Shown piece by piece: positions 31,401-59,870 of a stretch of DNA of 64,000 nt. Positions within the stretch are counted from its first letter, which is position 1. Each line of letters opens with the position of its first letter. The position numbers and the translations under genes are program-made. Source of the stretch: an uncultured virus (IMG/VR IMGVR_UViG_3300034159_000040) (Duplodnaviria; Heunggongvirae; Uroviricota; Caudoviricetes); the IMG/VR virus record IMGVR_UViG_3300034159_000040. The stretch is one strand, 5' to 3'. The notes beneath the pieces are model-generated. The model made no database searches, had not been told where the DNA came from, and worked only from the letters and a program-made list of their open reading frames with translations.

Positions 31401-34400
31401 TAGCATCCTGACCGGCGCCCGGTCCGATGTGGGCTACGGGTTTGACACCAAGACCAAGCGCGGGCGTCTGGATGCCGCCGCGGCGTTCCTGGAGAACGAC
31501 GGGTGGGAGTTCCCGAAGTACGGCATCAAGCGTGAGACCGACTTCTACGACCAGGCCACGCAGTTGGGCGATTACTGGAAGCGCCCGCAAGAGCTGTGGG
31601 CGCGCTCCTGGGAGGCGTCGATCTATGACTGGATGGGCGCGGAGCGGCGCTCCGACTATCTGGTCAGCGATTTCGTGAAAGAGGGGCAGTACACCAAGGG
31701 CCTGATGTACAGCGGAACCCCCTACCCGACGGGGACTGAGCGGATCGCCTTCTCGGCCATGTGGCACGAGATGCTCAAGCACGTCACTTGGGTCGACGGC
31801 AAACCCAAGGCGCTGGGCAGTTTTCAAGACCCGCTGACCGCACAACGCGACGCCATCCGTGCGCTTGCCGAGGAGTTGAAGGCCGACCTGCGCGCGCGCT
31901 ATGCCGCGCTCAACGGGATCGAGTCCGCAGATAAGCACTATTGGTATGCGTATACTGAGGACAGACGCGGGCCGGGCGCGCAACCGCCAGGCTTTGCCGC
32001 CTACGACGACGCGCATCGCCAGGGCGAGGCAACCGAGGCCCTGGGCGCGGTCGCCTACCTGGAGCCGCTGGGACCCGAGGAGATCAACTCCTTCCTGCTG
32101 GAACCGTTCCAGCACGAGGCCGGGCCATCCACCACTTACTTGACCGAGGACGAACGTGGAAACCAAGTTGACCGGGTGGGCGCACCAGGTGTGGTTGGAT
32201 CTGAAGACCAACCGACCGGCGGCGTTCGCGGCCCTGGAGCAGGCGGGAACGCTGCGGGAGACCTGCGTGACGATTCAGGAAGCGGCGAAGGATCAGGGCG
32301 CGGAACTGACATCACGGGGACTGCCGTACAACCAGGCGATGGAACTGGTGTTCAACAACCTGCTGAGGGTCCCGACGGAACAGGAGGAACCGGAGACGCC
32401 ACTGCGATTCCGGCCACCGGCAATTTCTCCGTCACCCGCCCTGATGATTTGATCCCGTCCGGCAAGGCGGAAGCCTTCGCCGACAACATCCGCGCGATCC
32501 GCCTTCTGAAGGAGATTGAAGCCGCGGGGCGCATGGCCACGCCCGCCGAGCAGGCGATCCTGGTGCAGTTCCACGGCTGGGGCGGGATCGCCAATGAGTT
32601 GTTCAGCTACCGCCGGCTGGAACCGGCCTGGCAGCGGCGCTTTGATGCGCTGGAGCAACTGTTGAGCTACGAGGAGATGACCGCGGCGCGGGCCTCTACC
32701 GTCAATGCCAACTATACCGACCCGGCGGTGGTGCGCGCCATGTGGTCGACCCTGGAGCGGATGGGCTTCGCTGGGGGCAAGGTGCTCGACCCCTCCTGCG
32801 GCGTGGGCTACTTCTTCGCCATGATGCCCAAGGAGATGGAGGCGGCATCCAAACTGATGGCGATCGACCTTGATCCGATCTCAGCGCGCCTGGCGTCCCA
32901 GGTGTTGCAGCGCACCGCGGTCAAGCAGTCGGGGTTTGAGGATGTGAAGCTGCCCGAGCGCTACTTCGACCTGGTGGTCAGCAACGTCCCCTTTGCCGAC
33001 TTTGCCCCAGTCGACAAGAAGTACAACCCTGGCAAGCGTTTCCTGCACGACTACTTCTTCCTGAAGTCGATCGAGTTGGTACGCCCCGGCGGCATCGTTG
33101 CCTTCATCACCTCGCGCGGGACCCTGGACAAGATCGCCAAGGGCGGCCCCGAGGTGCGCGCGGCCCTGGCCGCCAAGGCCGACCTGATCGGCGCCGTGCG
33201 CCTGCCCGAGAACGCCTTCAAGGAAGCGGGCATGACCACGGTCACCACCGACATCATCTTCCTGCGGCGCAAGGCCGGGGACAAAACTGACCTGACCGAG
33301 ACCTGGGGCGAGTCCCAGCCGATGGAGTTGGCAGGCATGGAGGACGTGCGCGCGGTGACGCTCGACAAGGAGGCCGGAGACGAGCGCGGCACCTACGGCC
33401 AGAAGACCGCCAACGTCAACGAGTATTACCACCGCCACCCCGAGCAGATGGCAACCCGCATGATTTGGCGTGCCGGGCGCTACGGCAACGCCTACGAACC
33501 GGCGATGGAGCCCAGCGACCAACCGATCGGCGAGACGGTACTGCCGCTGCTGGCCCGACTGCCGGGTGCCGTCATGATGGAGGAGGGCCAGGCCGCCTTT
33601 GCCGACGAGTCCATGTACGCGGTGTCGGCGGAAGTGGGCGACGTGAAGGACGGCGGCTTTGCCGAGCACGAGGGTGCCTTGTGGGTGAAGCGCGAAGGGA
33701 TGCTCTACCCGCTTGATCCGCCGCTCAAGGCCGACGACCAAGCGCGCGTGCGCGGTTACCTGGAGGTCATGAAGGGGCGGCGCGCGGTGCTCAACGCCGA
33801 GCTGCGCCAAGCCGACGACCAGGAGTTGAAGCGCCTGCGCCAGGGGCTACGCAAGCAGTATGACGCCTTCGTTAAGGCGCACGGGCCGCTCAATCTCAAG
33901 GAGAACGCCAAGGCGTTTTGGTCCGATCCGGACGCCCCGGCGGTGCTCGCCCTGGAGCATTGGGATGCCGAGGCGCAGAAGGTCGGGCGCCTGGCCGATA
34001 TCTTCACCGAGCGGGTGGTGGCGATCCGGCAGGCCCCGACCCACGCCGACAGTCCGCTCGATGCGCTCGCCGCGGCGCTCAACTACCGCGGGCGCGTGGA
34101 CTGGAAGTACATGCAGTCGCTGACCGGCCAACCCTTCGAGGCGGTGCGCGAGGGGCTACGCGGGACGGTCTACAACGATCCGCTGGCCGGCTGGGTGACG
34201 GCCGATGCGTACTTGAGCGGAAACGTGCGCGAGAAGCTCACGGCAGCCAAGACCGCGGCCGAGGTGGATGACGCCTACCAGGAGAATGTCGCGGCACTGG
34301 AGGCGATCCAGCCGCCCGACCTGACCCCGCAAGAGATCCATGCCAACTTGGGCGCGAACTGGGTCCCGGCCGAGACGGTGCGCGACTTCGTGTCTCATCT

Positions 34401-37400
34401 GCTCGACCTGAACTACCGCGGGCAAGATGCGCTGATCGTCAGCTACGCCAGGCCGACCGGTAAGTGGCATGTGCAAATCGGCGGGGAGAACGGTGCGGCG
34501 GCCAATCGCAACCAGGCCGCCATCCTGTCATCGACGCCGGCGACCGTCACCTGGGGCACCAAGCGCGCCCATCTGCTGGACCTGCTGGATCTCGCGCTCA
34601 ACGGTGGGGTGCCGCGCGTCACTGATCCGGTGGAGTATTTCGAGGACGGCCGGCGCAAGGTCCGCCAAGTCGTCAACGAGGAACAGACCGAGGCGGCCCG
34701 CGCCAAACTGGAGGCGATCCGCGACGAGTTCCAACGCTGGACCTGGGCCGACCGCTACCGCTCCGAGGCCATGGGACGGGTCTACAACGACTTGCGCAAC
34801 GCCGAGGTGCTGCGCAAATTCCAGCATCCCTATTACGTCGCAGCAAAGCCACAGGAGGCATTCCCTGGCCAGAGTCCGCACGAGCAGTTGCGCGACTACC
34901 AAGCCGGCGCGGTGTGGCGCATTCAGCAGGACCTGGACGCCTACCTGGGACACGAGGTCGGAACCGGTAAGACCTTTGAGATGATTACCGCGGGCATGGA
35001 GTTAAAGCGCACCGGGGTGAAGAAGAAACCCATGTACGCGGTGCTTGGCTCCACCGTTGGGCAGTTCCGCGCCGAGTTCCTGCGGCTCTATCCGAACGCC
35101 AATATCCTGACGATCCATATTGGCGATAACGCCCGGCAGCGGCGGTTGGCGCTGGGTCGAATCGCCAACAACAATTGGGATGCGGTGATTGTCACCCATG
35201 AGAGCTTTAACCGGATTCCGGTATCTCCCGATACCGAGATGAAGCGGATCGCTCAGGAGTTGGAGGACCTGGAGGAGGCGTTGCGCGGTGCGCGCGAGAC
35301 GGACACCGGAGGGGGGAGTTGGTCGGCGCGCGGTAAGAAGCCACCGAGCCAGGCGGTCAAGGCCCTGGAGAAGGCCAAGAAGCGACTGGAATCCAAACTC
35401 AAGACGCTCGGCGATATTCGCGAGAAGGATCAGGGGACGAGCTTCGAGGATCTGGGCGTCGATATGCTGTTTGTCGATGAGGCGCAGGAGTACAAAAACC
35501 TAGCCTTCTATACCAAACTGCAAGGTCAGGTGAAAGGGCTCGGAAACCCCAAAGGATCGGGCCGCGCCTGGGGTTTGTTCATGAAGGCGCGCTACCTGCA
35601 AGACACCTTCGGCGGCGGCGTGGTGTTGGCGAGCGGGACCCCGGTATCCAATTCGGTCGCCGAGGTCTACACCATTCAGCGGTATCTGGACTATCCCGCG
35701 TTGCGCGCGTCCGGTCTGCATCACTTTGACCGTTGGGCATCGGAGTACGGCGACATTGGGGTCGCGTCCGAGTATGCCCCCGAGGGCGGCGGCTTCCGCG
35801 AGGTGGTGCGCTTCCGGCGCTTCTACAACGCCCCGGAGATGCTGCGCGCGGTCTATCGCCGGCTCGACGTGATGACCGCGGCCGAGGCCGGCGTGCCGCG
35901 TCCAGCGATGACGGGAGGGGCGCCCGAGCAGATCGTGGTGCCACAGACCCCGACCCTGGCGGCCTTCCAAGAGACGCTGATCGTGCGGGCGAAGCGGGTG
36001 CGCAAGAATCCGCGCCAAGCCTTGCCCGACAACATGCTGAACATCGTCACCGACGGGCGCAAGGCGGCGATGGATATGCGGATGATCGACCCGGCTAATC
36101 CCGATGAGGCCGACAGCAAGACCAACAAGGCGGTCGACACGGTGTTTCGCGAGTACCAGCGCACCACCGGGATTTCCGTGAAGGACCCGACTGACCCCAA
36201 GAAGACCATCAAAATCGATGGTGTTGCGTTGGTCTTTGCTGACCTTGGGGTGCCCAACAAAGAAGGGCGCTTCTCGATCTACGACGAACTGAAGAGGAAG
36301 TTAATCGAGCGCGGAATCCCGGCGGCAGAGATCGCCTTTGCGCAAGAGACCAGCGGCTCGACCGATGTGCGGCGAGCGGCGCGATTGGCGCAGCATGGGC
36401 GAGTGCGGGCCGGAAAGATCAGGGTCTATATCGGATCAACGTCGACCATGGGCACCGGGGTGAACGTGCAGACGCGCGTCTCCCTACTGCTGCACATGGA
36501 TGTCTGGTGGAACCTCTCCAACTGGCTGCAACGCAACGGCCGCGGTATCCGCTTCGGCAACCTGTTCAGTGAAGTGAAGGTCCTCAACATCGGTGCCGAG
36601 CGCACGGTGGACACCTTCGTCTGGGACAAGGTGCAGCAGAAGGGCATCATTGTCGACAAGATTCTCAGCAAGAACCTGATCGAGCGCACCATCGAGGACG
36701 TGTCGCAAGACACCATGAGCGCAGGCGAGGCGATGGCCGCCTTCAGTGGCGATCCACGCATCAAGCGCCGGGCTGACCTTCAGGCCGACGTGCGCCGCAT
36801 GGCGGCACTGGAACGCGCCTACCAAGAAGCCCGCCGCGATGTCTTTGGGCGACTCAATCGGGCGAAGGCATGGGTCAAGCAGGCTCTCGCCGAAACGCCG
36901 GAGCAGGGCGAATACCGCGACCAACTCGAAGACCTGACGATCGACGGCGGGCTCTTGATCTTCGAGCCCAAGCGGGCGACCGCCACCGCCTTTTCGTTCC
37001 AGGAAGATGCGCAGAACAAGCGGGCTGGCGATATCACCAAGGCGCTGATTGCTGCCTATCAAGGGCAGGCGAATAAGCTGCGGGCGCAAGACTCCGCGGC
37101 TTACGATCAGGCCGATAAGGATTGGCACGACAACCCGAAGAACAAAGGCACGTTGTTGCCCTGGTCCAATTATCCCACTCGCCATCATCTACCCCCGTTG
37201 TCGGTCGGAATCTTCGCCGGGCACGGGATCAGCGCCACCTGGACGGTGAAGGACAACACGCGCCTGGAACCGCACGCCGACGACTTCGTGTCGATCCTTG
37301 CCACCAAACGCGGCAGTTACGAGTTTGGCGCGGACACCACCCCGCGCACTTTGGCGCAGGGACTACTCGCGCACATCGAGGGGAAGAATCAGGACCGCAT

Positions 37401-40400
37401 TGTGGGTCTCAAGGAGGCGCAGCGCGAGATTCCGCGGTTGGAAGCTGAGTATTCAAAGCCTTTCGCGCAGGCCGACGAGTTGCGCGACAAGGCCGATGAG
37501 TTGGACCGGTTGACTGCGGACCTGCTGCTGTCCACCGAGGATAAGTCGGTCGTGGTCGATGCGGCAGCCGAAGAACAGGCGGATGCGGCGGACCAGGGCG
37601 AGGACGAGGAGTCTGTCGATGACCAGGGCGAGGCGCTTTTCTCGCTCGGCAACCTCCCCGGCGTGCCGACCCAGACCCGCACGCGGTCCCCAGACCTGCC
37701 GCGCCTGACGCAAGCCTTCCTCGACGCCAAACTGCAACCCCTGTTTGCCAAGCTCAAGGGGCTCTCGCGCGCGGCCGACCTCCGGGTGGTGCAGACGGAA
37801 GGGGAACTGCCCGCGGCGGCCGTGGCGGGGCTGCGCGAGGCTCGCAAGGCCAACCCGAGCGCGACGGCGAAGGCGGTGTTCATCCCCGGCGAGAAGGGCG
37901 CCAAGGGGACCATCTGGGCGGTGGCGGACAATTTGGCCGACGTGCGCGATGGGATAGTGACGGTCCTCAGTCATGAGGCGTTTCACAGTGGCTTACGCCA
38001 GGCGTTCGGCCCAACCCTCAACCCCTTCCTGGACGAGTTGATCGCCGACCGCCAGGCCGACGTTGCCCTGTACGCCCGCGCACGGGGTTTGTCCATGGAA
38101 AACCTGGACGAACGCCGGGAAGCGGCTGATGAGTTCCTGGCGCACCTGGCCGAGGTCAACGCCCAGGCCGACCTGCCCTTCCTGCGCCGGGTCTATGCCG
38201 CGATCCGGGCCTGGTTGCGCAAGGCCGGCTTCGTGCTGCACTTCTCCGACGCCGACCTGCGCGAGATCGTCGCCGGGGTGGCGCAGTACAACCGCACCGG
38301 GGAGGATCGGGTGCGGGCGCAGTTGCGGGCAAGGTTTGGGCAGATGGCCGGTGAGCGAACGGGCGGGTGGCGGTTCTCAACCGGGCGGGCCGATACCGAA
38401 TTTGCTCCCGAATACCTGGCTGACGTTGGAGTGGATAACCAGGCTGATCCGCGCCTTGTGCCATCATCCCAAGCCAAGGAGTTTGACGCAGGAAAGACGG
38501 TCACACTCTACCGCGCTATGTCGATGATCGACGGCAAACTGTATCCGCCAATGTCGGCGAAGATGACCGACGAGATGGGTAATCTTGCGCTGCGTAAGCC
38601 CGAGCCAGTCGGGAAGTGGATGCGTTCCGAGGAACGGCCGGACTTGGTTCCGACTGACGGGATGTATAAAGGGCAGTTCCCGCTTAAAAAGCCAGGTGGC
38701 GGGACGACGTGGGCACTGTATGCCCCTTACTTCCACGCTTCCCCTGTTCCATTGAATGACCAGTTCACTGCCGCATGGAAGAATGATGGGGTAGAGCGTC
38801 CCCAGCTTGTGACCGTGGAAGTCGAGGTTCCCATAAGCGAGATAACAAGCGGTTATCAAGCGGAAGGATCAGTCAAAAAAGTTGGACCAAACAAGTGGAA
38901 CAGCGGCGTGGTGGCGTCCAAGGTTCCCGGTGGGCGCGAGGTTGTGCTCTCTCGGTACCTGAGAATCAAGCGAGTCGTTCCTGACTCAGAGGTAGCGCAG
39001 AAGATTGCGGCGATCGTCAACAAGAACAGGCTGAGTATTCCTGAAAACACGGTCACGCCACAACTGCGCGCAGAGTTGGAGAAAAACGGCGTTCGCATTG
39101 CGCGGAAAGGAACCAAGGGTGATGACATCCGCTATGCCACCGGCCGGGCGGGGGAACCATCCGGAACCGCCGGAGAGTTCACCGAGTCCGCCTACCGCCC
39201 CGCCGTGGTGGCCTGGGCCAAGGCGCGCTTCGGCGAGCAGCGGGCACCGGATGGGGGGTTGGCGTGGCAGAACTTTGCGCGCTGGTTCGGCAATAGCGCA
39301 ATGGTCGATCAAGCGGGGGAGCCTGTTGCACTCTATCGCGGAGACAAAGACCCGACCTTCACGACATTTGAACCGGACAAGATGGGAACGAACACAAGAA
39401 CGGAAGGATCGAAAATAGGGTTCTTTTTCACTCCTAACCGGATGTTCGCGATTAGCCCCCAATACGGCGGCGAGGTGCGAGCGTTTTATTCAAATTCGGA
39501 AAATCCATATTTTGTAAAACTCAAAAACCGCCAGATCGAGACGCAACTATTATCTGATTCGGATAAGATCGACACCAACCCACAAAAAGTGAGATCGTGG
39601 TTATTGGATCGCGGGTACGATTCAGTGATGATAGAGGGGGCTACGGCCGACAAACACATGGAATTGATAATATTGAAGTCGGAAAACGTCAAGTCAGCGA
39701 CAGATAACACCGGAGCTTTCGGCCCCTCCCCCGACATCCGCTACGCCCTGGGCGGGGCGCCGGCCGGGCCGCGGGTCGCCAGCACGCCCACCCTCACTAG
39801 CCGCATTGCTGCCGCCTTTGAACGCTACGCCCCCTACGGCTACAACATCCCCGGCCGGGCCACGTCCAAGCGCGTGCGCGGCTGGGACAAGACCGTCGGC
39901 ACCCCGCGCAACCTGGCACTCAACCAGCCCGAGTTCCGGCCGGTCTATGACGGGCTGTCGCGCCAGGCCGACTCCAATTCGAGCTATGCCATGGAGGCCG
40001 AGGCGCTGGCCCCGCACTGGTTCACCCAGATGGAGCAGGGGCCGCGCGCAGCCTGGCGTTCGGCGAAGCTGGTGCGCGGGGCGATGAGCCCGCGCGAGCT
40101 GGCCGCGGTCCAACTGGCGCTCAACGAGGGGACGCTGGCCGAGCACCGCTACAGCCCCGCCGAGTTGCAAGCCCGCGGGCTCAACGCGCGCCAGGTCGCG
40201 AGCTACACCCAGGCGCTGGCCGCCACCCACCGCAGCCTCGACAGCACCGCGCAGACCTTCCAGGCCGGGGCGCTGCGCGCGCTGCTGGAGGAACTGCACC
40301 CCGATCTACCGCCCCCCGTGCGCCATGCGATGAGCGGGCGGCTGTCGCGCCTGATCCTGGGGGAGAACGTCGCGGAGGCCGCGAGCAACGCCGAGCAGGC

Positions 40401-42771
40401 CCTGAGCCCGCTGCGCGAGGACGCGGTGCAGCGCTTCCAGGAGGCGCGGCACATGGTCACGCTGATGCGCGGGGAGCATGGCGCAGACCAGGTGGCAGAC
40501 ACCGCGGCGCAGCAGGCCCTGACGCGCGCTCAGAAGGCCCTGGACGGTGCTACTGCCAAGACCTATACCAAGGCGCACGCCGACCTGACGGCGGCGCAGA
40601 AAGCCCAGCAGGGCACCGCGCGGGCCTTGGCGCAGTCCACCAGGAATCTGGACGCGGCCGAGATGGGGCTCAAGCAAGCCGACGCCCTTGTCAAGAAGAT
40701 CGACGCCACCCAGGCGAGCATCGACGGCATCGCCGAGCGGGTCGCGGATCTGAAGGACAATGCCTATTTCCCGCTGATGCGCTTCGGTCAGTTCGCGGTC
40801 ACGGTATGGGCTGAGGAGACTGACCCGGTGACCGGGCAGACCGAGCGCAAGGTGGTGTTCTTCCGCAAGTACGCCTCTGAAGCCGAGCAGATGGACGCCT
40901 TCAAGGCGATCGATGCGGCCAAGGGACCGGGGGAGGAGGTCCACCACGGCATCACCAGCGAGGAGGGCCACAAGCTGTTCCGCGGGCTCAACATGGACAC
41001 CCTCGCGCTCTTCGCCGACCACATCGATACCACCAGCCAGGACGGCAAAGACACCGCGGCGCTGATGCAGCAGTACATCCGGCTCGCCGCGGCCGAGGCA
41101 TCGGCGCTGAAGCGCACCCTGCACCGCGAGGGCATCGCCGGCTACTCGCCCGAGGCGCAGCGGGTGTTGGCCAGCTACATCGTCAGCAACGCCCGGCTCG
41201 CCTCCAACAACCTGCACGCCGGGGACGTGGGCTATGCCATCGACGCGATCCCCCAGGGCCACGGGGATCTGCGCGACTACGCCATCAACCTGCGCGACTA
41301 CCTGGCCGATCCGGGCGAGGAGTTCGCCGGGCTGCGGCAGTTTATGTTCGCCTGGTACCTGGGGGCGTCGGTGTCCTCCGCGCTGACCAACCTCAGCCAG
41401 GTGCCGATGGTCACCGCCCCCTACCTGACCCATCAGCCGGGAAACGTGACGCGGCTCTTGAAGAACGCTTATGCCCAGGTGCTCAAGGGGCGCAAGGGGC
41501 GGCCGGACCCGGCGACGGCGCTCGGCAAAGCCTACCTGCAGGCCGAGCAGGAGGGGCTGATCTCGCCCCAGGGCATCTACAACCTGATGGCGACGGCGCG
41601 CGGCGGGACGCTGAGCCCAAGCGGCTTCATGAGCGGCCCCAACGCGCAGTTTGTGATGACGGTATGGGGGGGGTTCTTTTCGCTCGCCGAGCAAGCAAAC
41701 CGTCAGGTGACGTTCATCGCCGCCTACAACCAGGCGCTCGGCAACGGACTGAAGGACGCGGGCGCCTATGACTATGCCGCCGAGGCGGTGAACCAGACGC
41801 AGTTCGTCATGCGCAAGGAGAACCGGCCGGTGTGGGCGCGCGGGCTTGGCGCTCCGCTGTTCACCTTCAAAATGTTCACCGTAAACTACCTCGAACTGCT
41901 CGCGCGGATGCCGCTGAAGCAACGCTCGCTGATGCTGGCCGCCCTGGTAGTCGGGGCCGGACTCGGGGGACTGCCGGGCGCCGACGACGCCGAGGACATC
42001 ATCGACACCCTGATGCAGTGGTTCGGGCACAACTTCCAGTCTAAGGAGGAACTGGACCGGTGGGCCAACGCCCTGCTGGGCGAGGCTATCGGCCCCGTGG
42101 TCACTCATGGCATCAGCCGCGCCGGGTTGCCGTTCGACATCGCCAGTCGTGTCGGCATGGGCAACCTGATCCCCGGCACCGGGATACTGAAGCCAGGCAA
42201 CATCGGATCGGCCCGCGAGCAGTCGGAGTTGTGGGGGCCGATCGCCGGCATCGTCAAGGATCTCGGTACCGCCACCGAGCAGGCCGCGCGCGGCAACTGG
42301 AGCCGGGCCGCCTACGCCGCCATGCCGCGCGCCATCAAGGGCCTGGTGGATGGGACCTCGGCGATCCTCACCGGTGAGGCGCAAGACCGGTTTGGCACGC
42401 CGCTGATTCCGCTCTCGCGCACCGAGTCGATCTTCAAGGCGATCGGCTTCAACCCCGTGCGCGTGGCGCAGTTCAACGAGCAGAAGTACAGCATCCTGGA
42501 GCGCGACACCTACCGCAAGAAAATGGAGTCGGCCTACATGGACCACATGGCGCGCGCGGCACTCAAGGGCGATGCCGCCGGGGTGCAGGCGGCCAAGGAG
42601 CAGATTGCGGGGTGGAACAAGACCAACCCGGAGACCCCGATCAAGTGGACCCATGCCCAACTGCGCCAGCGGGTGAAGTCGCTGAAGTTGACCAGCAGCG
42701 CGCGGTTCCTGAAGGCGCTGTCTCCGGAACTCAGGCAGGAGGCGGCGGCAGCGTTCGGGGCTGGGGGTTAG
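25474..42771 (+). CDS. giant polyvalent DarB-like virion protein (LPD1/MPTase, N6A-MTase, SNF2 helicase, second MPTase, ART-like, PLxRFG)
   Basis: HEWGH (31276), YWKRPQELWAR, DPSCGVG (32788), NVPF (32983), HEVGTGKT (34951), DEAQ (35476), QRNGR, HEAFH (37972), WFGNS..YRGD..GFFF (about 39280-39430), PLMRFG (40771). Confidence 0.9.
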   Translation: MGDQGPSAFDVWQQTGIIPPAPAAPKPQASAASAFGLMPALDVPAAPAFGMPPPVVPPVVPPAQPFTAPAPPPPAPSKPALSAFDQWQQTGVIPPASTAAAPTPAPAPTAFEPPAAAPPIAATPDRAADPYAFRPGEAPDQYVKRQQIANMGDVEAGLRGGLESVKSLGYGALAAGADAVGADRVKGWALQGYRDTEKAAAPYQEGRPASLEDIKLGESGGIGRAVDWAQYQFGNVLPSIAETVVAGAIGAAVGSSVPGAGTAVGTVASAAGKGLAKDWIKGQVAKYVAADVAKGVAADVAQQAAHKAVAGQIGTRLGMLASGYQMGLGDVYSETLNADQTDGNAGIAFVAALPYAVLDAVTEIGILDRIGKGVGADSLTKFAGAIFKEAGTTALKEGVTEAAQEAVLLAAGIAEGKTYTSDEVLSRLGNAGAAGAVAGGGMGGISGLARGMQQTPEQIAAAGAQQIQAEPDPAKREALRQAAVTAAAAAMGQGGKPPAAAPTPPSVNPNAGPLTNAADLAIATGATNVAAQSDQTQSTSPVSTATPLGGGGNLTDAAAVPGNIQSGAQGIPGSTDAVGNPADRGTTQAPAGVTGAPTGEPPPGPQPPTTPPVLPAPADPATTSTAEQIKAGMAALAQGAGYAGQLRTAELVAKHGETPLAKPESIAAAKASPLYHVRDNPDGTASIIGAVHPDTGQWVGVAPPGAPNVAIPPAPFVSGNETGATQQPPGADVGVPGSGARETLDGAGATPAPGAPLAVPQPPGAPAPELRPADLAATPEGPPVAPTPAAQPPVDLAPTPTPPATAAPVAAAPETVDPFKPIIEKIKDGSASLEEAKALDAEFVKRAYSIINDPNVVIRRLNSEPLTAHEQWAYDFLKSKERKLTPAQGELLDKLFWPQNLSSTPETPANGPERPPQADQTEQGAPPAVPAGTQRQAAGAPEPQGAAGADGRLEGAAVPVAPTHEAADGAPLWATATPGLYLDADGIETADRYATPVTTTPTGAPPNGQATHTTASTDATPGARGEAKPPGQGEGPGQGTGSGLGQTTTPATGDQTNVEASPTPESLRPAEGQGRRKGQGQGQTAGQRVAPTAATEGPTAAPIAREIAGQPRAYNLGRAAALDGKPSPKVPRTAFARGYADVQAEQARRKPTVPTPAAPVGKESLTTAPAAGKAPKNMGDLGAEVHANRFVKKLHDAGISAARVWTKEKIGTRIYLPGNSGYMTISDDGTLSDSDRSKVAYEPNQLYPKQRQAIAKAVKEYRKESTALGDEIFARNESTYTAATDKESLPVGADQTQPQPTSTPQTPAAPVEPGAVVEPAAKPDGNDTTAIVNAAIDSELDALFGVASDAAPPATPTPGPSRTAGRAAVRAGANVGKGLSEIASGLTALFGSPGRLGSGLTFDETSYEKAKPLFIAGVAHFKEAATDISEMVKLLVRALVKDHGLQRETIENMRPYIQRFVQDVQSGAVTLGEQPQEEPTVEPPTETPVATGEQEPIPEPTPTPEPPPTTEGPGEQTKPEKVKTPKKTTGEAKTPRVKKTTPADAKVPRGAKDRGAGTVLVRPMDAIRRALAALRATDPKHYVEAALKAATPGKVWDLPAVREGVTPGTLRAQEWLRGQLLSPLEYLGAKHGGALGKYRTSYADAIVRWLNGAERNSDRETARAAFESEVADYITTVEALGAKLSGAGNVAQVAAAMQEYLTPNAVERAKFMDMDEDGRVEGRWGRTKLFDYTVAEQADAYGKRLLEMLRAPRDKRGHKLDRIDTYFLQETNEKSPWYGFLKGEADTVTKLIEPKRPVLKKIVREGFKDVLQGREPTSELVKAEFNFAAVPVGNYVTSTSGAAHLTGSFEGLHDLAELIGADPKTDLSFGGELHYSIGKLGRGGKASAFFAPAWPIFRVTEDGKEALDDNGMPIVDGHVKAINITKAAGDGSVAHEWGHALDDALDATPEGRRMTALVKAALMHRLDPARLESVLDSILTGARSDVGYGFDTKTKRGRLDAAAAFLENDGWEFPKYGIKRETDFYDQATQLGDYWKRPQELWARSWEASIYDWMGAERRSDYLVSDFVKEGQYTKGLMYSGTPYPTGTERIAFSAMWHEMLKHVTWVDGKPKALGSFQDPLTAQRDAIRALAEELKADLRARYAALNGIESADKHYWYAYTEDRRGPGAQPPGFAAYDDAHRQGEATEALGAVAYLEPLGPEEINSFLLEPFQHEAGPSTTYLTEDERGNQVDRVGAPGVVGSEDQPTGGVRGPGAGGNAAGDLRDDSGSGEGSGRGTDITGTAVQPGDGTGVQQPAEGPDGTGGTGDATAIPATGNFSVTRPDDLIPSGKAEAFADNIRAIRLLKEIEAAGRMATPAEQAILVQFHGWGGIANELFSYRRLEPAWQRRFDALEQLLSYEEMTAARASTVNANYTDPAVVRAMWSTLERMGFAGGKVLDPSCGVGYFFAMMPKEMEAASKLMAIDLDPISARLASQVLQRTAVKQSGFEDVKLPERYFDLVVSNVPFADFAPVDKKYNPGKRFLHDYFFLKSIELVRPGGIVAFITSRGTLDKIAKGGPEVRAALAAKADLIGAVRLPENAFKEAGMTTVTTDIIFLRRKAGDKTDLTETWGESQPMELAGMEDVRAVTLDKEAGDERGTYGQKTANVNEYYHRHPEQMATRMIWRAGRYGNAYEPAMEPSDQPIGETVLPLLARLPGAVMMEEGQAAFADESMYAVSAEVGDVKDGGFAEHEGALWVKREGMLYPLDPPLKADDQARVRGYLEVMKGRRAVLNAELRQADDQELKRLRQGLRKQYDAFVKAHGPLNLKENAKAFWSDPDAPAVLALEHWDAEAQKVGRLADIFTERVVAIRQAPTHADSPLDALAAALNYRGRVDWKYMQSLTGQPFEAVREGLRGTVYNDPLAGWVTADAYLSGNVREKLTAAKTAAEVDDAYQENVAALEAIQPPDLTPQEIHANLGANWVPAETVRDFVSHLLDLNYRGQDALIVSYARPTGKWHVQIGGENGAAANRNQAAILSSTPATVTWGTKRAHLLDLLDLALNGGVPRVTDPVEYFEDGRRKVRQVVNEEQTEAARAKLEAIRDEFQRWTWADRYRSEAMGRVYNDLRNAEVLRKFQHPYYVAAKPQEAFPGQSPHEQLRDYQAGAVWRIQQDLDAYLGHEVGTGKTFEMITAGMELKRTGVKKKPMYAVLGSTVGQFRAEFLRLYPNANILTIHIGDNARQRRLALGRIANNNWDAVIVTHESFNRIPVSPDTEMKRIAQELEDLEEALRGARETDTGGGSWSARGKKPPSQAVKALEKAKKRLESKLKTLGDIREKDQGTSFEDLGVDMLFVDEAQEYKNLAFYTKLQGQVKGLGNPKGSGRAWGLFMKARYLQDTFGGGVVLASGTPVSNSVAEVYTIQRYLDYPALRASGLHHFDRWASEYGDIGVASEYAPEGGGFREVVRFRRFYNAPEMLRAVYRRLDVMTAAEAGVPRPAMTGGAPEQIVVPQTPTLAAFQETLIVRAKRVRKNPRQALPDNMLNIVTDGRKAAMDMRMIDPANPDEADSKTNKAVDTVFREYQRTTGISVKDPTDPKKTIKIDGVALVFADLGVPNKEGRFSIYDELKRKLIERGIPAAEIAFAQETSGSTDVRRAARLAQHGRVRAGKIRVYIGSTSTMGTGVNVQTRVSLLLHMDVWWNLSNWLQRNGRGIRFGNLFSEVKVLNIGAERTVDTFVWDKVQQKGIIVDKILSKNLIERTIEDVSQDTMSAGEAMAAFSGDPRIKRRADLQADVRRMAALERAYQEARRDVFGRLNRAKAWVKQALAETPEQGEYRDQLEDLTIDGGLLIFEPKRATATAFSFQEDAQNKRAGDITKALIAAYQGQANKLRAQDSAAYDQADKDWHDNPKNKGTLLPWSNYPTRHHLPPLSVGIFAGHGISATWTVKDNTRLEPHADDFVSILATKRGSYEFGADTTPRTLAQGLLAHIEGKNQDRIVGLKEAQREIPRLEAEYSKPFAQADELRDKADELDRLTADLLLSTEDKSVVVDAAAEEQADAADQGEDEESVDDQGEALFSLGNLPGVPTQTRTRSPDLPRLTQAFLDAKLQPLFAKLKGLSRAADLRVVQTEGELPAAAVAGLREARKANPSATAKAVFIPGEKGAKGTIWAVADNLADVRDGIVTVLSHEAFHSGLRQAFGPTLNPFLDELIADRQADVALYARARGLSMENLDERREAADEFLAHLAEVNAQADLPFLRRVYAAIRAWLRKAGFVLHFSDADLREIVAGVAQYNRTGEDRVRAQLRARFGQMAGERTGGWRFSTGRADTEFAPEYLADVGVDNQADPRLVPSSQAKEFDAGKTVTLYRAMSMIDGKLYPPMSAKMTDEMGNLALRKPEPVGKWMRSEERPDLVPTDGMYKGQFPLKKPGGGTTWALYAPYFHASPVPLNDQFTAAWKNDGVERPQLVTVEVEVPISEITSGYQAEGSVKKVGPNKWNSGVVASKVPGGREVVLSRYLRIKRVVPDSEVAQKIAAIVNKNRLSIPENTVTPQLRAELEKNGVRIARKGTKGDDIRYATGRAGEPSGTAGEFTESAYRPAVVAWAKARFGEQRAPDGGLAWQNFARWFGNSAMVDQAGEPVALYRGDKDPTFTTFEPDKMGTNTRTEGSKIGFFFTPNRMFAISPQYGGEVRAFYSNSENPYFVKLKNRQIETQLLSDSDKIDTNPQKVRSWLLDRGYDSVMIEGATADKHMELIILKSENVKSATDNTGAFGPSPDIRYALGGAPAGPRVASTPTLTSRIAAAFERYAPYGYNIPGRATSKRVRGWDKTVGTPRNLALNQPEFRPVYDGLSRQADSNSSYAMEAEALAPHWFTQMEQGPRAAWRSAKLVRGAMSPRELAAVQLALNEGTLAEHRYSPAELQARGLNARQVASYTQALAATHRSLDSTAQTFQAGALRALLEELHPDLPPPVRHAMSGRLSRLILGENVAEAASNAEQALSPLREDAVQRFQEARHMVTLMRGEHGADQVADTAAQQALTRAQKALDGATAKTYTKAHADLTAAQKAQQGTARALAQSTRNLDAAEMGLKQADALVKKIDATQASIDGIAERVADLKDNAYFPLMRFGQFAVTVWAEETDPVTGQTERKVVFFRKYASEAEQMDAFKAIDAAKGPGEEVHHGITSEEGHKLFRGLNMDTLALFADHIDTTSQDGKDTAALMQQYIRLAAAEASALKRTLHREGIAGYSPEAQRVLASYIVSNARLASNNLHAGDVGYAIDAIPQGHGDLRDYAINLRDYLADPGEEFAGLRQFMFAWYLGASVSSALTNLSQVPMVTAPYLTHQPGNVTRLLKNAYAQVLKGRKGRPDPATALGKAYLQAEQEGLISPQGIYNLMATARGGTLSPSGFMSGPNAQFVMTVWGGFFSLAEQANRQVTFIAAYNQALGNGLKDAGAYDYAAEAVNQTQFVMRKENRPVWARGLGAPLFTFKMFTVNYLELLARMPLKQRSLMLAALVVGAGLGGLPGADDAEDIIDTLMQWFGHNFQSKEELDRWANALLGEAIGPVVTHGISRAGLPFDIASRVGMGNLIPGTGILKPGNIGSAREQSELWGPIAGIVKDLGTATEQAARGNWSRAAYAAMPRAIKGLVDGTSAILTGEAQDRFGTPLIPLSRTESIFKAIGFNPVRVAQFNEQKYSILERDTYRKKMESAYMDHMARAALKGDAAGVQAAKEQIAGWNKTNPETPIKWTHAQLRQRVKSLKLTSSARFLKALSPELRQEAAAAFGAGG
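27056..27253 (+). CDS. nested +1-frame ORF A (65 aa, Arg-rich)
   Basis: GGAG(27046)-ctacca-ATG; MSRRNQTKRKARRRFQ...LKHLLV. Confidence 0.5.
   Translation: MSRRNQTKRKARRRFQLQRRWAGAEILRMRRQYRETFNRGRKEYLDRQMRSGIPPIEVRLKHLLV
27596..27856 (+). CDS. nested +1-frame ORF B (86 aa, Arg/Trp-rich)
   Basis: GGAG(27586)-ccccca-ATG; MSPFRLRRLYPETKLEQLN... Confidence 0.5.
   Translation: MSPFRLRRLYPETKLEQLNSRLGLMWGYRDLVLGKHWMAQERRRRQARHWLYRNRQVHRRLNFDRPTWQQRLKGRLWPPHRPHSRP
28202..28354 (+). CDS. nested +1-frame ORF C (50 aa, Lys/Arg/Pro-rich)
   Basis: GGAG(28188)-N10-ATG; nearly all codons end in G/C in this frame. Confidence 0.55.
   Translation: MAQKDPRKPTKPSKGRPPPFPPERSAKQQGRPNRKERREPTGAWKGPLFL
28493..28606 (+). 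CDS. nested +1-frame ORF D (37 aa)
   Basis: GGAG(28480)-N9-ATG; MAKPPTPPPPQTPRQERGEKPSRQDKAKDRGKGPDRD. Confidence 0.5.
   Translation: MAKPPTPPPPQTPRQERGEKPSRQDKAKDRGKGPDRD
28643..28741 (+). CDS. nested +1-frame ORF E (32 aa, Gly/Lys-rich)
   Basis: GGAG(28630)-N9-ATG; MSKHHQPLKACAPPKGKGGAKGKGKGKPPARG. Confidence 0.5.
   Translation: MSKHHQPLKACAPPKGKGGAKGKGKGKPPARG
32156..32452 (+). CDS. nested +1-frame ORF F, TnpV-like (98 aa)
   Basis: GAGGA(32146)-N5-GTG; GW....LKTNRPAAFAALEQAGTL......QEAA....AMELV resembles the TnpV pattern. Confidence 0.6.
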   Translation: METKLTGWAHQVWLDLKTNRPAAFAALEQAGTLRETCVTIQEAAKDQGAELTSRGLPYNQAMELVFNNLLRVPTEQEEPETPLRFRPPAISPSPALMI

Positions 42772-44144: not shown

Positions 44145-44376
44145 TAGCCTCTCCGTCCGCTTCGCCGTCAGGCTTCTGGGCCTCATCTGGCACCGCTTCG
44201 AGAGTGATCTTCACTCCGCGCCAGCCCTTGCAGTCGTCCCGATGAACCGGGAAGAACAGCGTCAGCGGTTGGGTTACGCTCATTGGCGCAAGCGGTGACC
44301 TCAGCATCGACTCGGCCACCAATTGCACGCCGAATGGATTCAGGCCAACCGCGTGCAAGTCGTTCATGATATTCAT
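44137..44376 (-). CDS. hypothetical protein
   Basis: Overlap-coupled ORF MNIMNDLH... Confidence 0.5.
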   Translation of the reverse strand: MNIMNDLHAVGLNPFGVQLVAESMLRSPLAPMSVTQPLTLFFPVHRDDCKGWRGVKITLEAVPDEAQKPDGEADGEANG

Positions 44377-44939
44377 ATCGTCACCCCCGCCAACCGCTGG
44401 GACGCCAGCGCCACGCAGACCACCGCCGCCGACTCGATCGTGTTGCGCCCGCCGTTGTCCCGCTTGTCGTTCGCCATCGCCTCCTCGCGCACGTCCATCA
44501 GCATCTGGAAGACCGCGCGATCCTCTGGCGTCTTGAAGACGCGCTCCGGGCTCCATTGGTTGATCGCCGCGTTGATATCGGCACGATCCCCCTGTAGCCG
44601 ACAGAAGAACAACCGCCGGCAATCGTATTCTCGGCAACTCGCCGGCCGCCGGGCATAGACGCTACACCGACCATCGATCAGGTACGCACAGGCCCCGTCG
44701 TCGGCGTGCGGCAGGATACGGTCGTAGTCGCCTGTCCCTGGTACCGTCTCCAAGGTCTGGTCGTCGCTCGCGCGGACCTCGACGGCATAGCCGTGGCAGC
44801 AGGCGGTGCAGGTCCCGCAGGGCACTGCCAACTCGAAGGGTTCATGGGCCTGATAGGATCGCAGGGCCGCCACGGTGCGGCGCAGCCAGGTGGCGACGGC
44901 TCCGGGGTGTTGGCTGGCCGCAGGGGCTGGGGTGGTCAT
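44373..44939 (-). CDS. YkgJ-family cysteine cluster protein
   Basis: CxxCxxCC (CGTCTACC), CAYL, CSVYARRPASCREYDC. Confidence 0.85.
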   Translation of the reverse strand: MTTPAPAASQHPGAVATWLRRTVAALRSYQAHEPFELAVPCGTCTACCHGYAVEVRASDDQTLETVPGTGDYDRILPHADDGACAYLIDGRCSVYARRPASCREYDCRRLFFCRLQGDRADINAAINQWSPERVFKTPEDRAVFQMLMDVREEAMANDKRDNGGRNTIESAAVVCVALASQRLAGVTI

Positions 44940-50931: not shown

Positions 50932-51828
50932 TTAACGCCCGGAAAACGAGTCTGTCGGCCCTTTCCGGTGCATCAGGTGTTGGCGCTGGCTGCGGCTTGG
51001 AACGACCTCGACGCGCACCAAGTCGTCGGCGCCCAGGGTCCAGGTCCAGCCGGTCGCGGCGGTGACCCGTTCCAGTGCAACCCGCAACTTCGGTCGGAAG
51101 TCGTTCAGCGCCTTGGTCTCGCTGCCGCACAACCGGTGCAAGGTCTCGACCTTGAGTGGATGGGGTTTAGCATGGGTGGCGTAGAAGCCGTGCAGCCATT
51201 GAGCAAGGGCCATGCCTTTGAGCTTCAGGCGCTGCTCCCATTGGACTTGCGTCCAGTCGCTCACCCCATAGAACGCGGAAATCTCCGGATCGACCCAGAC
51301 GACATAGTGCTGGTCCTGATCGTCGCGCTCGTACTTGGCGAGCAGATTACCCGACCTCGCCGGCTTTCCTTTTTCGACAATCTCCACCTTCGCGGAAGTC
51401 AGGCGGCGGATCGCGTTCTTGATCCATTCCAAGTCCTTGCCCCCGGAGCAGCGCCCAATGGATCGTAAAAACTCTCTGGCGGTAAAGGCTATCGGCGTGG
51501 TCAGAGGGGCGTGTCGCGCTCGGTGCAGGCATGATTCCCACACGTCCAGGTCGGCCTGATCGAGCCGCGGGCCAGTGTAGAGCAGGTCGATTCCGGCAAC
51601 ACTGGCAACGTGAACGCCGGTGAGAAATACCCGCGGTCCCCTGGCGACGGCTCCAAATAAGGAAGAGCGCAGCATCCCGTTGGGGACTCCGCGTACCGGC
51701 TCAGGCCACTTCGGAAGCGTCCCAGCGGGAGCTGGTGCGGGCGGCTCCAAAGGACCGGCTACCGCTTTCTTCCCCCGCGTCCTGGCGATCGCCCGCGTCG
51801 CCTCTATGCGCGCCTCCAGGTCGCTCAC
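50932..51828 (-). CDS. trfA: TrfA-family plasmid replication initiator
   Basis: W.E..RGVPN..LRS.LF, YTG.RLDQ.D.DVW, LAQWLHGFY.TH..P.P.KVETL..LCGS. Confidence 0.85.
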   Translation of the reverse strand: MSDLEARIEATRAIARTRGKKAVAGPLEPPAPAPAGTLPKWPEPVRGVPNGMLRSSLFGAVARGPRVFLTGVHVASVAGIDLLYTGPRLDQADLDVWESCLHRARHAPLTTPIAFTAREFLRSIGRCSGGKDLEWIKNAIRRLTSAKVEIVEKGKPARSGNLLAKYERDDQDQHYVVWVDPEISAFYGVSDWTQVQWEQRLKLKGMALAQWLHGFYATHAKPHPLKVETLHRLCGSETKALNDFRPKLRVALERVTAATGWTWTLGADDLVRVEVVPSRSQRQHLMHRKGPTDSFSGR

Positions 51829-56815: not shown

Positions 56816-57673
56816 ATGAGTAACGACGCTACCCACTGGGCTTGGCGGCAAGTTGTGAACAGCAGCAGCGCAAAGCTCGTGTTGCTTTCGATCGCGGATC
56901 GCGCCGACGAAATGCACACGGCTTACCCAAGTATCGAGCGGTTAGCAATGGATACTGAACTTGACCGGAAGACAGTGATGTTGGCCATTGAACACCTAGA
57001 GAAAGTTGGCGTGATCTCCGCAGATCGGGGAAACGGAAGACGGACTCACTACCAACTGGTCGGGGTGATCGGCCGAGAGGATGGACAAACAAGACCAGTA
57101 CCAAAAACGGGACTGGTCGAAAAACGCAAAATCGGTACCAAAAACGGGACCGGTACCAAAAACGGGACCGGTACCAAAAACGGGACCCAGACCAGTCCCG
57201 AAAACGGGACTGGAGCAGTACCAAAAACGGGACACGAACCAATCAATAACCAATCAGTGAACCGGAAAGAGGGGGAGAAGGGGCGCCCGACCGACTCGAC
57301 TCCTGCTGAGACACCGCAGGCGGCTGCGCCGCAACCCCCTCCCCGCCGCGCCCGATTTGTTCCTCCCACGGTTGAGGAGGTCCGCGCCTACTGCCGTGAG
57401 CGCGGGAATGCCATCGATCCTGAGCGTTTCATGAACTACAACAACTCATCTGGCTGGGTAATCGGAAAGTCCCTGAAGCCGATGAGCGACTGGAGAGCAG
57501 CAATCAGGACTTGGGAAACAAACCAAGGCCAACACACCAACACCCCCGGAGGCAACCATGGCCAGCGACCCGACCGACCCACCTTCAGCGAACTCAACCG
57601 ACTCGACTACGAGCAACATTGCGGACATCAAGATCCACCGGAGAGAGTCGTGTCTGGCATGGTTGTTCCGTGA
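56816..57673 (+). CDS. phage replication initiator (HTH_36, lambda O-like)
   Basis: AKLVLL.IADRA....AYPSI.RLA..T, PKTG/TKNG repeats, F.PPT.EEV..YC, M.DW.AA.RTW. Confidence 0.85.
   Translation: MSNDATHWAWRQVVNSSSAKLVLLSIADRADEMHTAYPSIERLAMDTELDRKTVMLAIEHLEKVGVISADRGNGRRTHYQLVGVIGREDGQTRPVPKTGLVEKRKIGTKNGTGTKNGTGTKNGTQTSPENGTGAVPKTGHEPINNQSVNRKEGEKGRPTDSTPAETPQAAAPQPPPRRARFVPPTVEEVRAYCRERGNAIDPERFMNYNNSSGWVIGKSLKPMSDWRAAIRTWETNQGQHTNTPGGNHGQRPDRPTFSELNRLDYEQHCGHQDPPERVVSGMVVP
57098..57233 (+). repeat. intragenic iterons of the phage origin
   Basis: GTACCAAAAACGGGAC at 57098, 57135, 57153, 57171 and 57218; variant at 57195. Confidence 0.9.
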
Positions 57674-58172
57674 GCTTGGCAACGAGTTCAAGGGGCGCTG
57701 GTCGGCCGACATGAAGTCGGCCGCGGATGTGCGCGACGCGAAAGTCTCGTGGTGGACGCACATCCACGACCTGAGCAAAGAGGAAATCCAGCACGCCCTG
57801 AGCGTCATGCCGACCGGCAAGGATGCCTGGCCTCCGGGTCCGCGCGAGTTCCGCAAGCTGGCCCGCTCCAATCGCCCGGCCCAGCCGGCGACCTACCTGC
57901 CGTCCCCACCGCGCACCCGCGACCAGCACCAGGCCGCGCTCGGGCACCTGCAAGCGATCCGCACGCTGCTGCCGCAGGTCCCGGTAGCCGCCGCCGTACT
58001 GCCCCAGGCGGACGGAGCGGTCCCTGACGATCCGGAGGCCGCCGCGCCGCTGGTCGATCCGCTCGCCCAGCGTCGCGCCTTCCTGGATCGCCATGCCGAG
58101 GACCTGCACGCGCTCGGGTTGGCGCGGTTCGCCCGTGAGCGGCCGGTCACGCAACCGCTCGATGCGCCGTGA
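57558..58172 (+). CDS. lambda P-like helicase loader / replication protein
   Basis: GGAGG RBS; W...I..LS.EEI..AL..WPP.P.EF..L; follows the O-like gene. Confidence 0.6.
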   Translation: MASDPTDPPSANSTDSTTSNIADIKIHRRESCLAWLFRELGNEFKGRWSADMKSAADVRDAKVSWWTHIHDLSKEEIQHALSVMPTGKDAWPPGPREFRKLARSNRPAQPATYLPSPPRTRDQHQAALGHLQAIRTLLPQVPVAAAVLPQADGAVPDDPEAAAPLVDPLAQRRAFLDRHAEDLHALGLARFARERPVTQPLDAP

Positions 58173-58182
58173 TGTATGACCG

Positions 58183-59568
58183 ATGGCCAGCTATCGCGCC
58201 TATCTCGACAGCCCGGCGTGGCGGTCGCTACGCCGGGCCGCCAGGCAGCGGGCGGGGAATCGGTGCGAATTGTGCGGGGCCGGCGCGGATGCGGTGCATC
58301 ACGTCACCTACCCTAAGCGATGGGCAGATGACCACCTGGACAACTTGATTGTCGTTTGTAATTACCACCACGATCTTTTGCATGGGGTACGAGGTGAAAC
58401 TATGAGCGGTGAGGTTCTTATCATTGAGGGGATCGAAAGCAAAGACGGATGGCTGGACTTCGATCAACTGCATGCGCTGCTGCATACCTACAAAATAACG
58501 TCGAAACATGACGGTCAAGACTTTATTTCAAGGAGCAATGCTAAGTCGTGCGACTGGTACTATGACCAAATTAAACCGAAGTACAAGAAGCTCGGCAGCG
58601 TCAAATTGCTATCAGGAGCAACCATCAATCGCCGGTGGGTGAACGAGCATGGAGCCTATCAATTCGCTTTGATGTGCAACACACCAAACGCTGAGCCGTT
58701 CCAGGAATTGGTTTTGGAAAAGATCATTCCTCAAGTGAGAAGAACAGGATCATTCGTCCCTGAGTTAACTGGAAACAACCTTGCCGATTTTGCGCTGAAC
58801 CTAAGCGAGCAAGCGAAGATCGTGGCGCGCTCTATTTTAGAATCAGCGGAAGCAAAGCGGGTTGCCGATAAGGCCGCGCAGGACGCGCACGAAGCCAGCA
58901 TCGGCGTGGCGGACTGTCGCACTCGGCTTGATGATGCGGTCCAGCGCCTTGACGAAATTACCGGGGACAAGGTTTTAATGACCGCGATGCTCTTTTTGAA
59001 GAAATCTGGAGTCAATCCACAAGCAATCTATCCCCGGACGCGCGACACGAACGCCAAAGTGCTTGGTGGGTGGTGCACGAGGGAGAGCCGGCGCCGCGGA
59101 CTGCCGTTGCCGGAGAAGATCGCCATGGGCGGTTTCGACGTCAATCAATATGAGCCCGCCTTACTGAGCGAGGGAGTCAAGGCGCTTGGAATGATACAAG
59201 ACCAAAATCGCGCCACCGATCCGGCGTGCTCGCAATTTCGTTGGAAGCTGCCCACCAACACCGCCGAGTGGCATCGCCTGGTCGACGGATTAAAGATCAC
59301 TGGCATAGCCGCGCAACTAGCCCGTCATTGCAATCTCGTCGCGTTGAGTGACGGGCACTTGACGTTGCAACTTGATCCAGCCGCCGAAGATCTACGCACG
59401 CCGACGATTGAGGAACGGCTGCGGTCATCCGTAGCCGCCGCACTTAATGAACCGGCGTTGCGGTTGGAGGTTCGCGTGGTGCGACTCGATAACGACGTGG
59501 TGGTGAAGCGATTGCGCGAACAATTCGGGGCGGCGGTTGTTCCTGGTAGCGTCCAAATATGTCCATGA
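58183..59568 (+). CDS. HNH-like / Bro-N-like / coiled coil / DnaX tau C-terminal domain fusion
   Basis: Y..YL.S..W..RCELC..VHH.TY..NL...C..HH; VNEHGAYQ..AEPFQ..V...IIPQVRRTGSF; C-terminal W..LV..L...G.A.QLA.HC..F.A.VVPGSV. Confidence 0.7.
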   Translation: MASYRAYLDSPAWRSLRRAARQRAGNRCELCGAGADAVHHVTYPKRWADDHLDNLIVVCNYHHDLLHGVRGETMSGEVLIIEGIESKDGWLDFDQLHALLHTYKITSKHDGQDFISRSNAKSCDWYYDQIKPKYKKLGSVKLLSGATINRRWVNEHGAYQFALMCNTPNAEPFQELVLEKIIPQVRRTGSFVPELTGNNLADFALNLSEQAKIVARSILESAEAKRVADKAAQDAHEASIGVADCRTRLDDAVQRLDEITGDKVLMTAMLFLKKSGVNPQAIYPRTRDTNAKVLGGWCTRESRRRGLPLPEKIAMGGFDVNQYEPALLSEGVKALGMIQDQNRATDPACSQFRWKLPTNTAEWHRLVDGLKITGIAAQLARHCNLVALSDGHLTLQLDPAAEDLRTPTIEERLRSSVAAALNEPALRLEVRVVRLDNDVVVKRLREQFGAAVVPGSVQICP

Positions 59569-59870
59569 CCAACCCCTCCCCCGGGCCCCAGCCCTGGACC
59601 GGCCTACCCGACCCGGCCGACCTGTCGGCTGACCTGGACGCCGAGGCGCACCCGCGCACCGCCGCCGACTGGACCCCGGAGGCGATCCGCGCCTGGTGCC
59701 TCCCCCGCGGTCGCGACCCGGCCTGGTTTCTCGATCCGGCGCCGCGGTCCAATCCCGACCCCGACCCGGTGCAGCGGATGGCCGCCAGAGCGCACCAGCG
59801 CCCCGTAGAGCCATCCGCGGCCCCTGACCCTGCCCACCCTACCGACCAACCCCCGGAGAGCCCCCAATGA
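59559..59870 (+). CDS. Pro-rich hypothetical protein
   Basis: Coupled ORF. Confidence 0.45.
   Translation: MSMTNPSPGPQPWTGLPDPADLSADLDAEAHPRTAADWTPEAIRAWCLPRGRDPAWFLDPAPRSNPDPDPVQRMAARAHQRPVEPSAAPDPAHPTDQPPESPQ

Follow-up and report, generated by a model that had tools for sequence, protein, structure and literature searches.

The window analysed here is the whole 64,000-nucleotide stretch of DNA from an uncultured virus (IMG/VR record IMGVR_UViG_3300034159_000040). It comprises the near-whole genome of a lambda-like phage, with terminase, portal and capsid genes at its left end and, further on, RecT-like, repressor, Cro-like, O-like and P-like genes, followed by lysis genes. Because an IMG/VR contig identical to the window extends beyond the window end into the terminase small-subunit gene, the genome is ~65 kb in size and circularly permuted, and the window looks near-complete. 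The sequencing runs that contain the phage are peat metagenomes; no RNA run was among those listed, which counts neither way. Neither a DNA polymerase gene nor an integrase gene was found among the selected ORFs of this near-complete genome that we scanned. As predicted originally, the gene under study lies directly after the O/P-like replication genes, its start being 11 bases past the P-like stop codon, and its features are as follows.

56816..57673, plus strand: O-like replication initiator (PHROG, 1e-34)
57558..58172, plus strand: P-like helicase loader (PHROG, 2e-5)
58183..59568, plus strand: fusion ORF P0001, 461 aa, with HNH, Bro-N, coil, small α/β domain and tau domain V (ORF translation; contig-spanned)
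58189..58392, plus strand: HNH domain (YPK subtype), residues ~3–70 (PHROG HNH, E 9e-11)
58402..58404, plus strand: candidate internal start Met74, with a GAGG ribosome-binding motif upstream (sequence and relatives)
58408..58752, plus strand: Bro-N/antirepressor-like DNA-binding domain, residues ~76–190 (Pfam, PHROG, Atlas)
58780..59187, plus strand: alanine-rich helical segment, probably coiled-coil (read by eye), and small domain (sequence; joint alignment)
59260..59484, plus strand: globular core of tau domain V, type-II KH-like, residues 360–434 (Pfam, phmmer, AF2 fold search, tree)
59484..59485, plus strand: in-frame deletion junction, ~24 DnaX residues gone (E. coli ~593–617, helix 6; alignment)
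59485..59565, plus strand: retained α-binding tail, equivalent to E. coli 618–643 (alignment; predicted interface in the co-fold)

Elsewhere in the window we observed a TrfA-family plasmid replication initiator (50932–51828, minus strand; Pfam E 4e-18); its presence alongside the O/P-like genes possibly indicates a second replicon and a phage-plasmid lifestyle. Further observations were a polyvalent protein of 5765 aa (25474–42771, plus strand), with LPD1, N6-methylase, helicase and ART-PolyVal domains in the first 5000 residues scanned, and a CxxCxxCC zinc- or iron-chelating protein (44373–44939, minus strand; Pfam E 2e-7). A repeated peptide unit within the O-like gene (57120–57240) probably reflects origin iterons. 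Beyond the fusion gene, at 59607–59660, a 677-nucleotide metagenome contig matches the next gene and differs in its upstream DNA, and it perhaps comes from a related phage that has no fusion gene there.

The GC content of the fusion ORF is 0.47–0.62, below that of the flanking DNA. An assembly artefact as the cause of the fusion or of the missing helix described below was ruled out, because one 2103-nucleotide contig, from a run outside those marked as possible sources, covers the gene from end to end with zero differences and contigs of two further runs reach across the junction. The HNH domain keeps His39, His40, Asn54, His63 and His67 and three of the four zinc cysteines, the fourth, present in most relatives, being His62 here; the HNH endonuclease motif (His-Asn-His with zinc cysteines) is present in the sequence, and nuclease activity is only predicted. 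Initiation at Met74 would yield a 388-aa form without the HNH domain. A methionine follows the HNH domain in 18 of the 25 rows examined (including L077, L081 and L085–L100), 7 with GGAG or GAGG upstream, and gene callers have deposited both lengths; alternative starts giving forms with and without HNH are thus possible. The Bro-N domain reached E 7e-5 and 23.8 bits in Pfam, against a cut-off of 25.6, with many PHROG Ant matches (to 7e-10) and Atlas leads below 0.9. The small domain after the coil corresponds to the end of ~350-aa relatives that have no tau part, by a weak profile match (E 2e-4, among 3 sequences). The AAA+ domains I–III and the DnaB-binding domain IV of DnaX are absent, the N-terminal 350 residues being HNH/Bro-N by Pfam and PHROG.

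The last 100 codons and the stop codon of the ORF (59266–59568) had been predicted to be the C-terminal domain of a host DnaX (Pol III tau) captured on an HNH/Bro-N protein. Sequence, fold and phylogeny all point to DnaX, and these 100 residues are confirmed as a true DnaX tau domain V. The expected likeness to the tau profile was borne out by E value (Pfam PF12170, DNA_pol3_tau_5, E 4.4e-6) but not by score, which at 27.4 bits fell just below the 28.8 cut-off, the internal deletion taking out part of the PF12170 model. Using phmmer against 1.84 billion representative proteins, we found 295 matches at E<=1e-3; the best was a DnaX (E 6e-22, 52% identity), and the leading DnaX C-termini were 48–52% identical. 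Nearly all of the best 150 of these 295 matches have tau-V-type C-termini, mostly in DnaX or DnaX fragments; one of the 150 is the protein's own cluster, and two very long proteins (P0007, an Ig-repeat protein, and P0069) were omitted. P0020 and P0031, in which an intact tau V follows unrelated domains, were taken as likely chimeric calls. Searching the PDB by phmmer with the single domain gave no match at E<=10, and a profile search joined the domain to E. coli tau in 5FKU, 8GJ0 and 2AYA.

The AF2 model of the core, built from an alignment rich in DnaX, had a pLDDT of ~90–95, and its top three PDB fold matches were E. coli tau V (E 4e-3 to 7e-3). Fold matches 4, 5 and 8 were of the DciA N-terminal domain/DnaA domain I type, with DciA right after tau V; no viral fold match was found at E<=1e-3. 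A structure search of the ESM Atlas with the Atlas's own model gave PF12170 in all 8 matches listed (TM 0.65–0.70). DciA was considered as an alternative identity and rejected: Pfam DciA reached E 0.008 against E 4e-6 for tau_5, and the tau tail is also present. DciA-type genes reach just E 7e-6 to 8e-4 with the tau profile.

The domain is not an intact copy. The absence of the "ETPA..helix" segment, part of the original prediction, proved correct: the phage copy has 0 residues at this place, compared with 20–36 in 169 of 174 aligned rows (24 in 140), and whereas the four other short rows have no tail, the phage copy keeps it. The equivalents of E. coli I618, D621, I624, L627, F631, A633, L635, S639 and I640 are identical or conservatively changed in the phage tail, and two well-conserved prolines are changed in the phage copy. 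The tail agrees with the consensus in 6 of its 7 conserved columns; compared with four Thiodictyon/Lamprocystis-type rows, it matches at 1–2 of 7 variable columns, a small contrast (p 0.05–0.5) that is gone against P0005 (4 of 7 variable columns). According to the part of Jergic et al. (2007; PMC1888804) available to us, α binding resides in the tau C-terminal tail in E. coli: domain V binds α at 0.13–0.26 nM and a 32-mer tail at 3.8 μM, binding by the core alone is unmeasurable, and domain V shows no DNA binding. Table 1 of the same source gives the cost in α binding of S617P, a helix-6 break, as 4.1 kcal/mol, of L627P as 5.4 and of F631I as 3.8, and the residues kept by the phage are those whose mutation weakens α binding there. 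Retention of the α-binding residues is thus supported at the level of sequence. In the DNA-free state, as described in the accessible part of Fernandez-Leiro et al. (2015; PMC4703070), the tau tail contacts the C-terminal domain of α and the core contacts its fingers, an arrangement proposed to be a release switch. The helix 6 deletion would remove the spacer between these tail and core contacts, and because helix 6 is lost, affinity for α should fall strongly, to the micromolar range.

Next we modelled the domain with the C-terminal 200 residues of a Thiodictyon DnaE and with three controls. The model predicts an interaction with DnaE, as foreseen originally, with a score of 0.75 compared with 0.00 for the best control, a result that may come from likeness to the host tau-α pair. 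Among solved complexes 116 of 157 reach this score mark, and among mismatched pairs 2 of 215, counts that hold roughly with the alignments used, of which the one for this pair had host-type DnaX in 12 of 16 rows; the score carries no affinity information. The runs agreed in at least 94% of contacts, with a partner pLDDT of at least 82, and confident contacts were made at domain residues 81–109 (the tail) alone, with residues 101–151 and 182–184 of the DnaE fragment on the other side. In this model the deletion would leave the tail free to dock on DnaE, and the domain may let the phage grab the host polymerase.

The best-match phylogeny, which had been expected to suggest the host, narrowed the donor to Thiodictyon/Lamprocystis. 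These are the closest named genomes (26 loci), with 43–44 of 74 core residues identical, and a 66% nucleotide match over 165 bases remains. In a tree built on 74 core columns and 35 rows, a selection from the 88 rows of an initial tree, the phage copy grouped with Thiodictyon/Lamprocystis DnaX (support 85/95, not starred) and paired with the stand-alone core P0009 (86/87, not starred), on a branch of 0.44 compared with 0–0.30 in neighbouring hosts. The tree thereby supports a capture from host DnaX, and because of the donor group the phage host is probably a purple sulfur bacterium. A scan of 251 donor-family genomes, in which the best 16 candidates per genome were scored, gave a match in 242 and more than one match in 10. 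Nine of these 10 and one weak single match were re-searched; the extra matches proved to be dnaX (split, duplicated or frameshifted) or weak frames of 156–174 aa, and the three frames that we read were DciA-type; the tenth genome has two full-length matches. No extra tau V copy was found among the donor-family genomes re-searched. Within 18 donor-genus genomes no close prophage was found, and one extra match there seems, on reading, to be an unrelated enzyme.

To judge how the captured domain has evolved, we compared it with host loci. Across 8 of them, pS was 0.61–0.78 and pN 0.26–0.36 in the core, and pS was 0.60–0.79 and pN 0.31–0.39 in the tail, which has only ~18 synonymous sites. Fourfold-degenerate sites were identical in 7 of 25 to 14 of 33 codons (nine host loci), i.e. 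near saturation, and despite this the protein remains ~58% identical to the nearest hosts. GC3 has moved from 0.76–0.90 in those hosts to 0.56–0.65 in the phage domain, matching the remainder of the phage gene. Of 16 conserved columns the core keeps 12, compared with 14 in host pairs of like identity. Saturated synonymous sites, a kept protein and the GC3 shift together argue for constraint over a long time, part of which may stem from an unsampled donor.

Other non-DnaX copies of the domain are few. The same phmmer search returned P0037, a 471-aa HNH-scaffold-tau fusion that is 26% identical overall and shares the N-terminal tau boundary with the phage fusion, and two stand-alone tau-V cores (P0009 and P0024), one of 89 aa and one of 81 aa, the 81-aa core having three variants. 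All three end after the core, without a tail, and keep 14–16 of the 16 conserved core columns. The stand-alone cores of 81–89 aa (P0009, P0024, P0153 and P0154) have their own start and stop codons and nest near Thiodictyon/Lamprocystis DnaX. AU tests did not reject one origin for the two fusions (p 0.28) or for all four non-DnaX copies (p 0.16), and one capture and two captures were not told apart. Word-index homolog searches (253–825 aa) returned the protein itself, alone or with P0037. When IMG/VR was searched with the domain, the N-terminal part, P0037, P0009 and three alignments, the only matches were an identical phage contig and a stand-alone HNH; GenBank phages and PLSDB plasmids gave no match, and the combination of HNH/Bro-N with tau V was absent among the Pfam, PHROG and Atlas rows listed. 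In the searches made, the tail-bearing form was found in one phage lineage only.

A metagenome scan with the HNH yielded 42 loci, which with one viral locus made 43 read, and none of these has a tau V at E<=1. Fourteen of the 43 are complete proteins of ~350 aa that end where tau begins in the phage fusion, their C-terminal likeness to it being weak; these complete relatives indicate that tau V is an addition to an already complete scaffold. L072 (1372–2661) has a different add-on of 65 aa that is reminiscent of a TubC-N-like domain; no match was found for it. In the ~350-aa HNH-coil family (L077, L087–L089, L091–L093, L095–L098 and L100–L102) Pfam names HNH alone in the 8 members scanned, and several members stand in contexts that do not look phage-like.

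Taken together, we tentatively favor a reading, which we hold to be quite possible, in which the fusion protein, tethered to DNA, serves as a weak and multivalent handle on host Pol III α. A modular HNH/Bro-N protein of a lambdoid phage has gained, at its C terminus, domain V from a Chromatiaceae DnaX. By its sequence this domain has lost the helix-6 spacer and kept the tail, which in the model docks on the α C-terminal domain. Each copy would bind α weakly, at micromolar affinity, so that the protein would act by avidity, being oligomerized through the coil and bound to DNA through Bro-N. Such a handle would hold host Pol III locally at the phage DNA during O/P-driven replication or, alternatively, at a nick made by the HNH domain; clamp loading and DnaB coupling are ruled out for the fusion protein by its lack of domains I–IV. 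As the ORFs scanned in the near-complete genome yielded no DNA polymerase gene, we prefer local recruitment to a global block. Against a handle stand the missing tail of all three other non-DnaX copies, the 14 full-length scaffold relatives without tau and the loss of helix 6, to be read with the 4.1 kcal/mol for its break and the gap between tail-only and full binding in the available part of PMC1888804. Doubtful, in our view, is a wider proposal: that mobile elements of purple sulfur bacteria captured and trimmed tau V more than once, and that the phage form tethers Pol III independently of the clamp loader, as a DNA-binding oligomer which would hold α via the tail and, without helix 6, be uncoupled from the core-to-fingers release switch, so that it could redirect or lock the host polymerase on phage DNA.

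Rather unlikely is the possibility that the selected unit is the KH-like core, serving as a contact module for nucleic acid, helicase or α fingers, with the phage tail as a remnant. Three of the four non-DnaX copies do stop right after the core (16/16, 14/16 and 14/16 conserved columns), the fold is common to DciA and DnaA domain I (our fold search; Marsin et al. 2021, PMC8216460, in the part available), and the core makes its separate contact with the α fingers (PMC4703070, in part). However, the accessible part of PMC1888804 gives no measurable α binding for the core and no DNA binding for domain V, an in-frame internal deletion that spares the tail, with tail pS above pN, is not what decay predicts, and P0009 and P0024 may be dnaX debris. 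Improbable, too, is a soluble dominant-negative decoy that would strip α from the host clamp loader and stall chromosome replication. The phage copy does keep the tail, by alignment and co-fold, and in E. coli low-level expression of domain V, even of its 7-residue truncation, is lethal (PMC1888804, in the part seen); but a free decoy is unlikely because the loss of helix 6 should cut affinity strongly, to micromolar against sub-nanomolar for native tau, the phage itself seems to depend on host Pol III, with no polymerase found in the ORFs scanned, and a decoy needs no fusion to DNA-binding domains. We likewise give little weight to a passenger, put by chance recombination on an antirepressor-like protein that works without it and persisting as a stable harmless fold, as the 14 tau-less relatives, the other add-on in L072, the rarity of the fusion and the longer phage branch would allow, but against which stand the open frame with ~58% identity at saturated synonymous sites, the GC3 shift to the level of the rest of the gene and the second, 26%-identical fusion with the same N-terminal boundary.

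Returning to the DNA-tethered handle, if DnaE is bound, the fusion protein would be a phage-made mimic of the tightest joint in the bacterial replisome and a way of taking over replication that did not turn up in the literature searched. That search, with subscription journals mostly outside it and supplements excluded, found no published case of a phage-borne tau domain V. With helix 6 naturally deleted, the contacts that tau makes through its tail and through its core are separated. The part that the core plays in releasing the polymerase, which is debated, thereby becomes open to direct test, and the α-tau interface is indicated as one that phages can attack.

Overall, the phage domain has the same core fold, conserved core residues and α-binding tail as DnaX tau domain V (PF12170; E. 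coli 499–643; PDB 2AYA, 5FKU and 5FKV), whereas it lacks the AAA+ domains I–III, domain IV and helix 6 and is fused to HNH/Bro-N; by its sequence it would act like the α-binding end of tau, yet it is no DnaX. The DciA N-terminal domain and DnaA domain I belong to the same type-II KH-like fold class, but the phage sequence is far closer to DnaX. With Bro-N/Ant antirepressor-like phage proteins it shares the Bro-N-like domain, the coil, a variable C-terminal domain and a place in a lambdoid early region, to which the fusion adds an N-terminal HNH and a terminal domain of host replisome origin. N4 gp8 and the staphylococcal phage inhibitors of the clamp or DnaI are phage proteins that engage parts of the host replisome. 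Mu C with the β clamp and the SPP1 helicase system likewise represent phage engagement of the host replisome, as far as the available parts of the sources go. To our knowledge, none of these is DnaX-derived. Unlike them, the present protein has captured and trimmed the host interaction domain itself, and it is a real, rare case, a new form both of modular Bro-N protein and of phage engagement with the host replisome.
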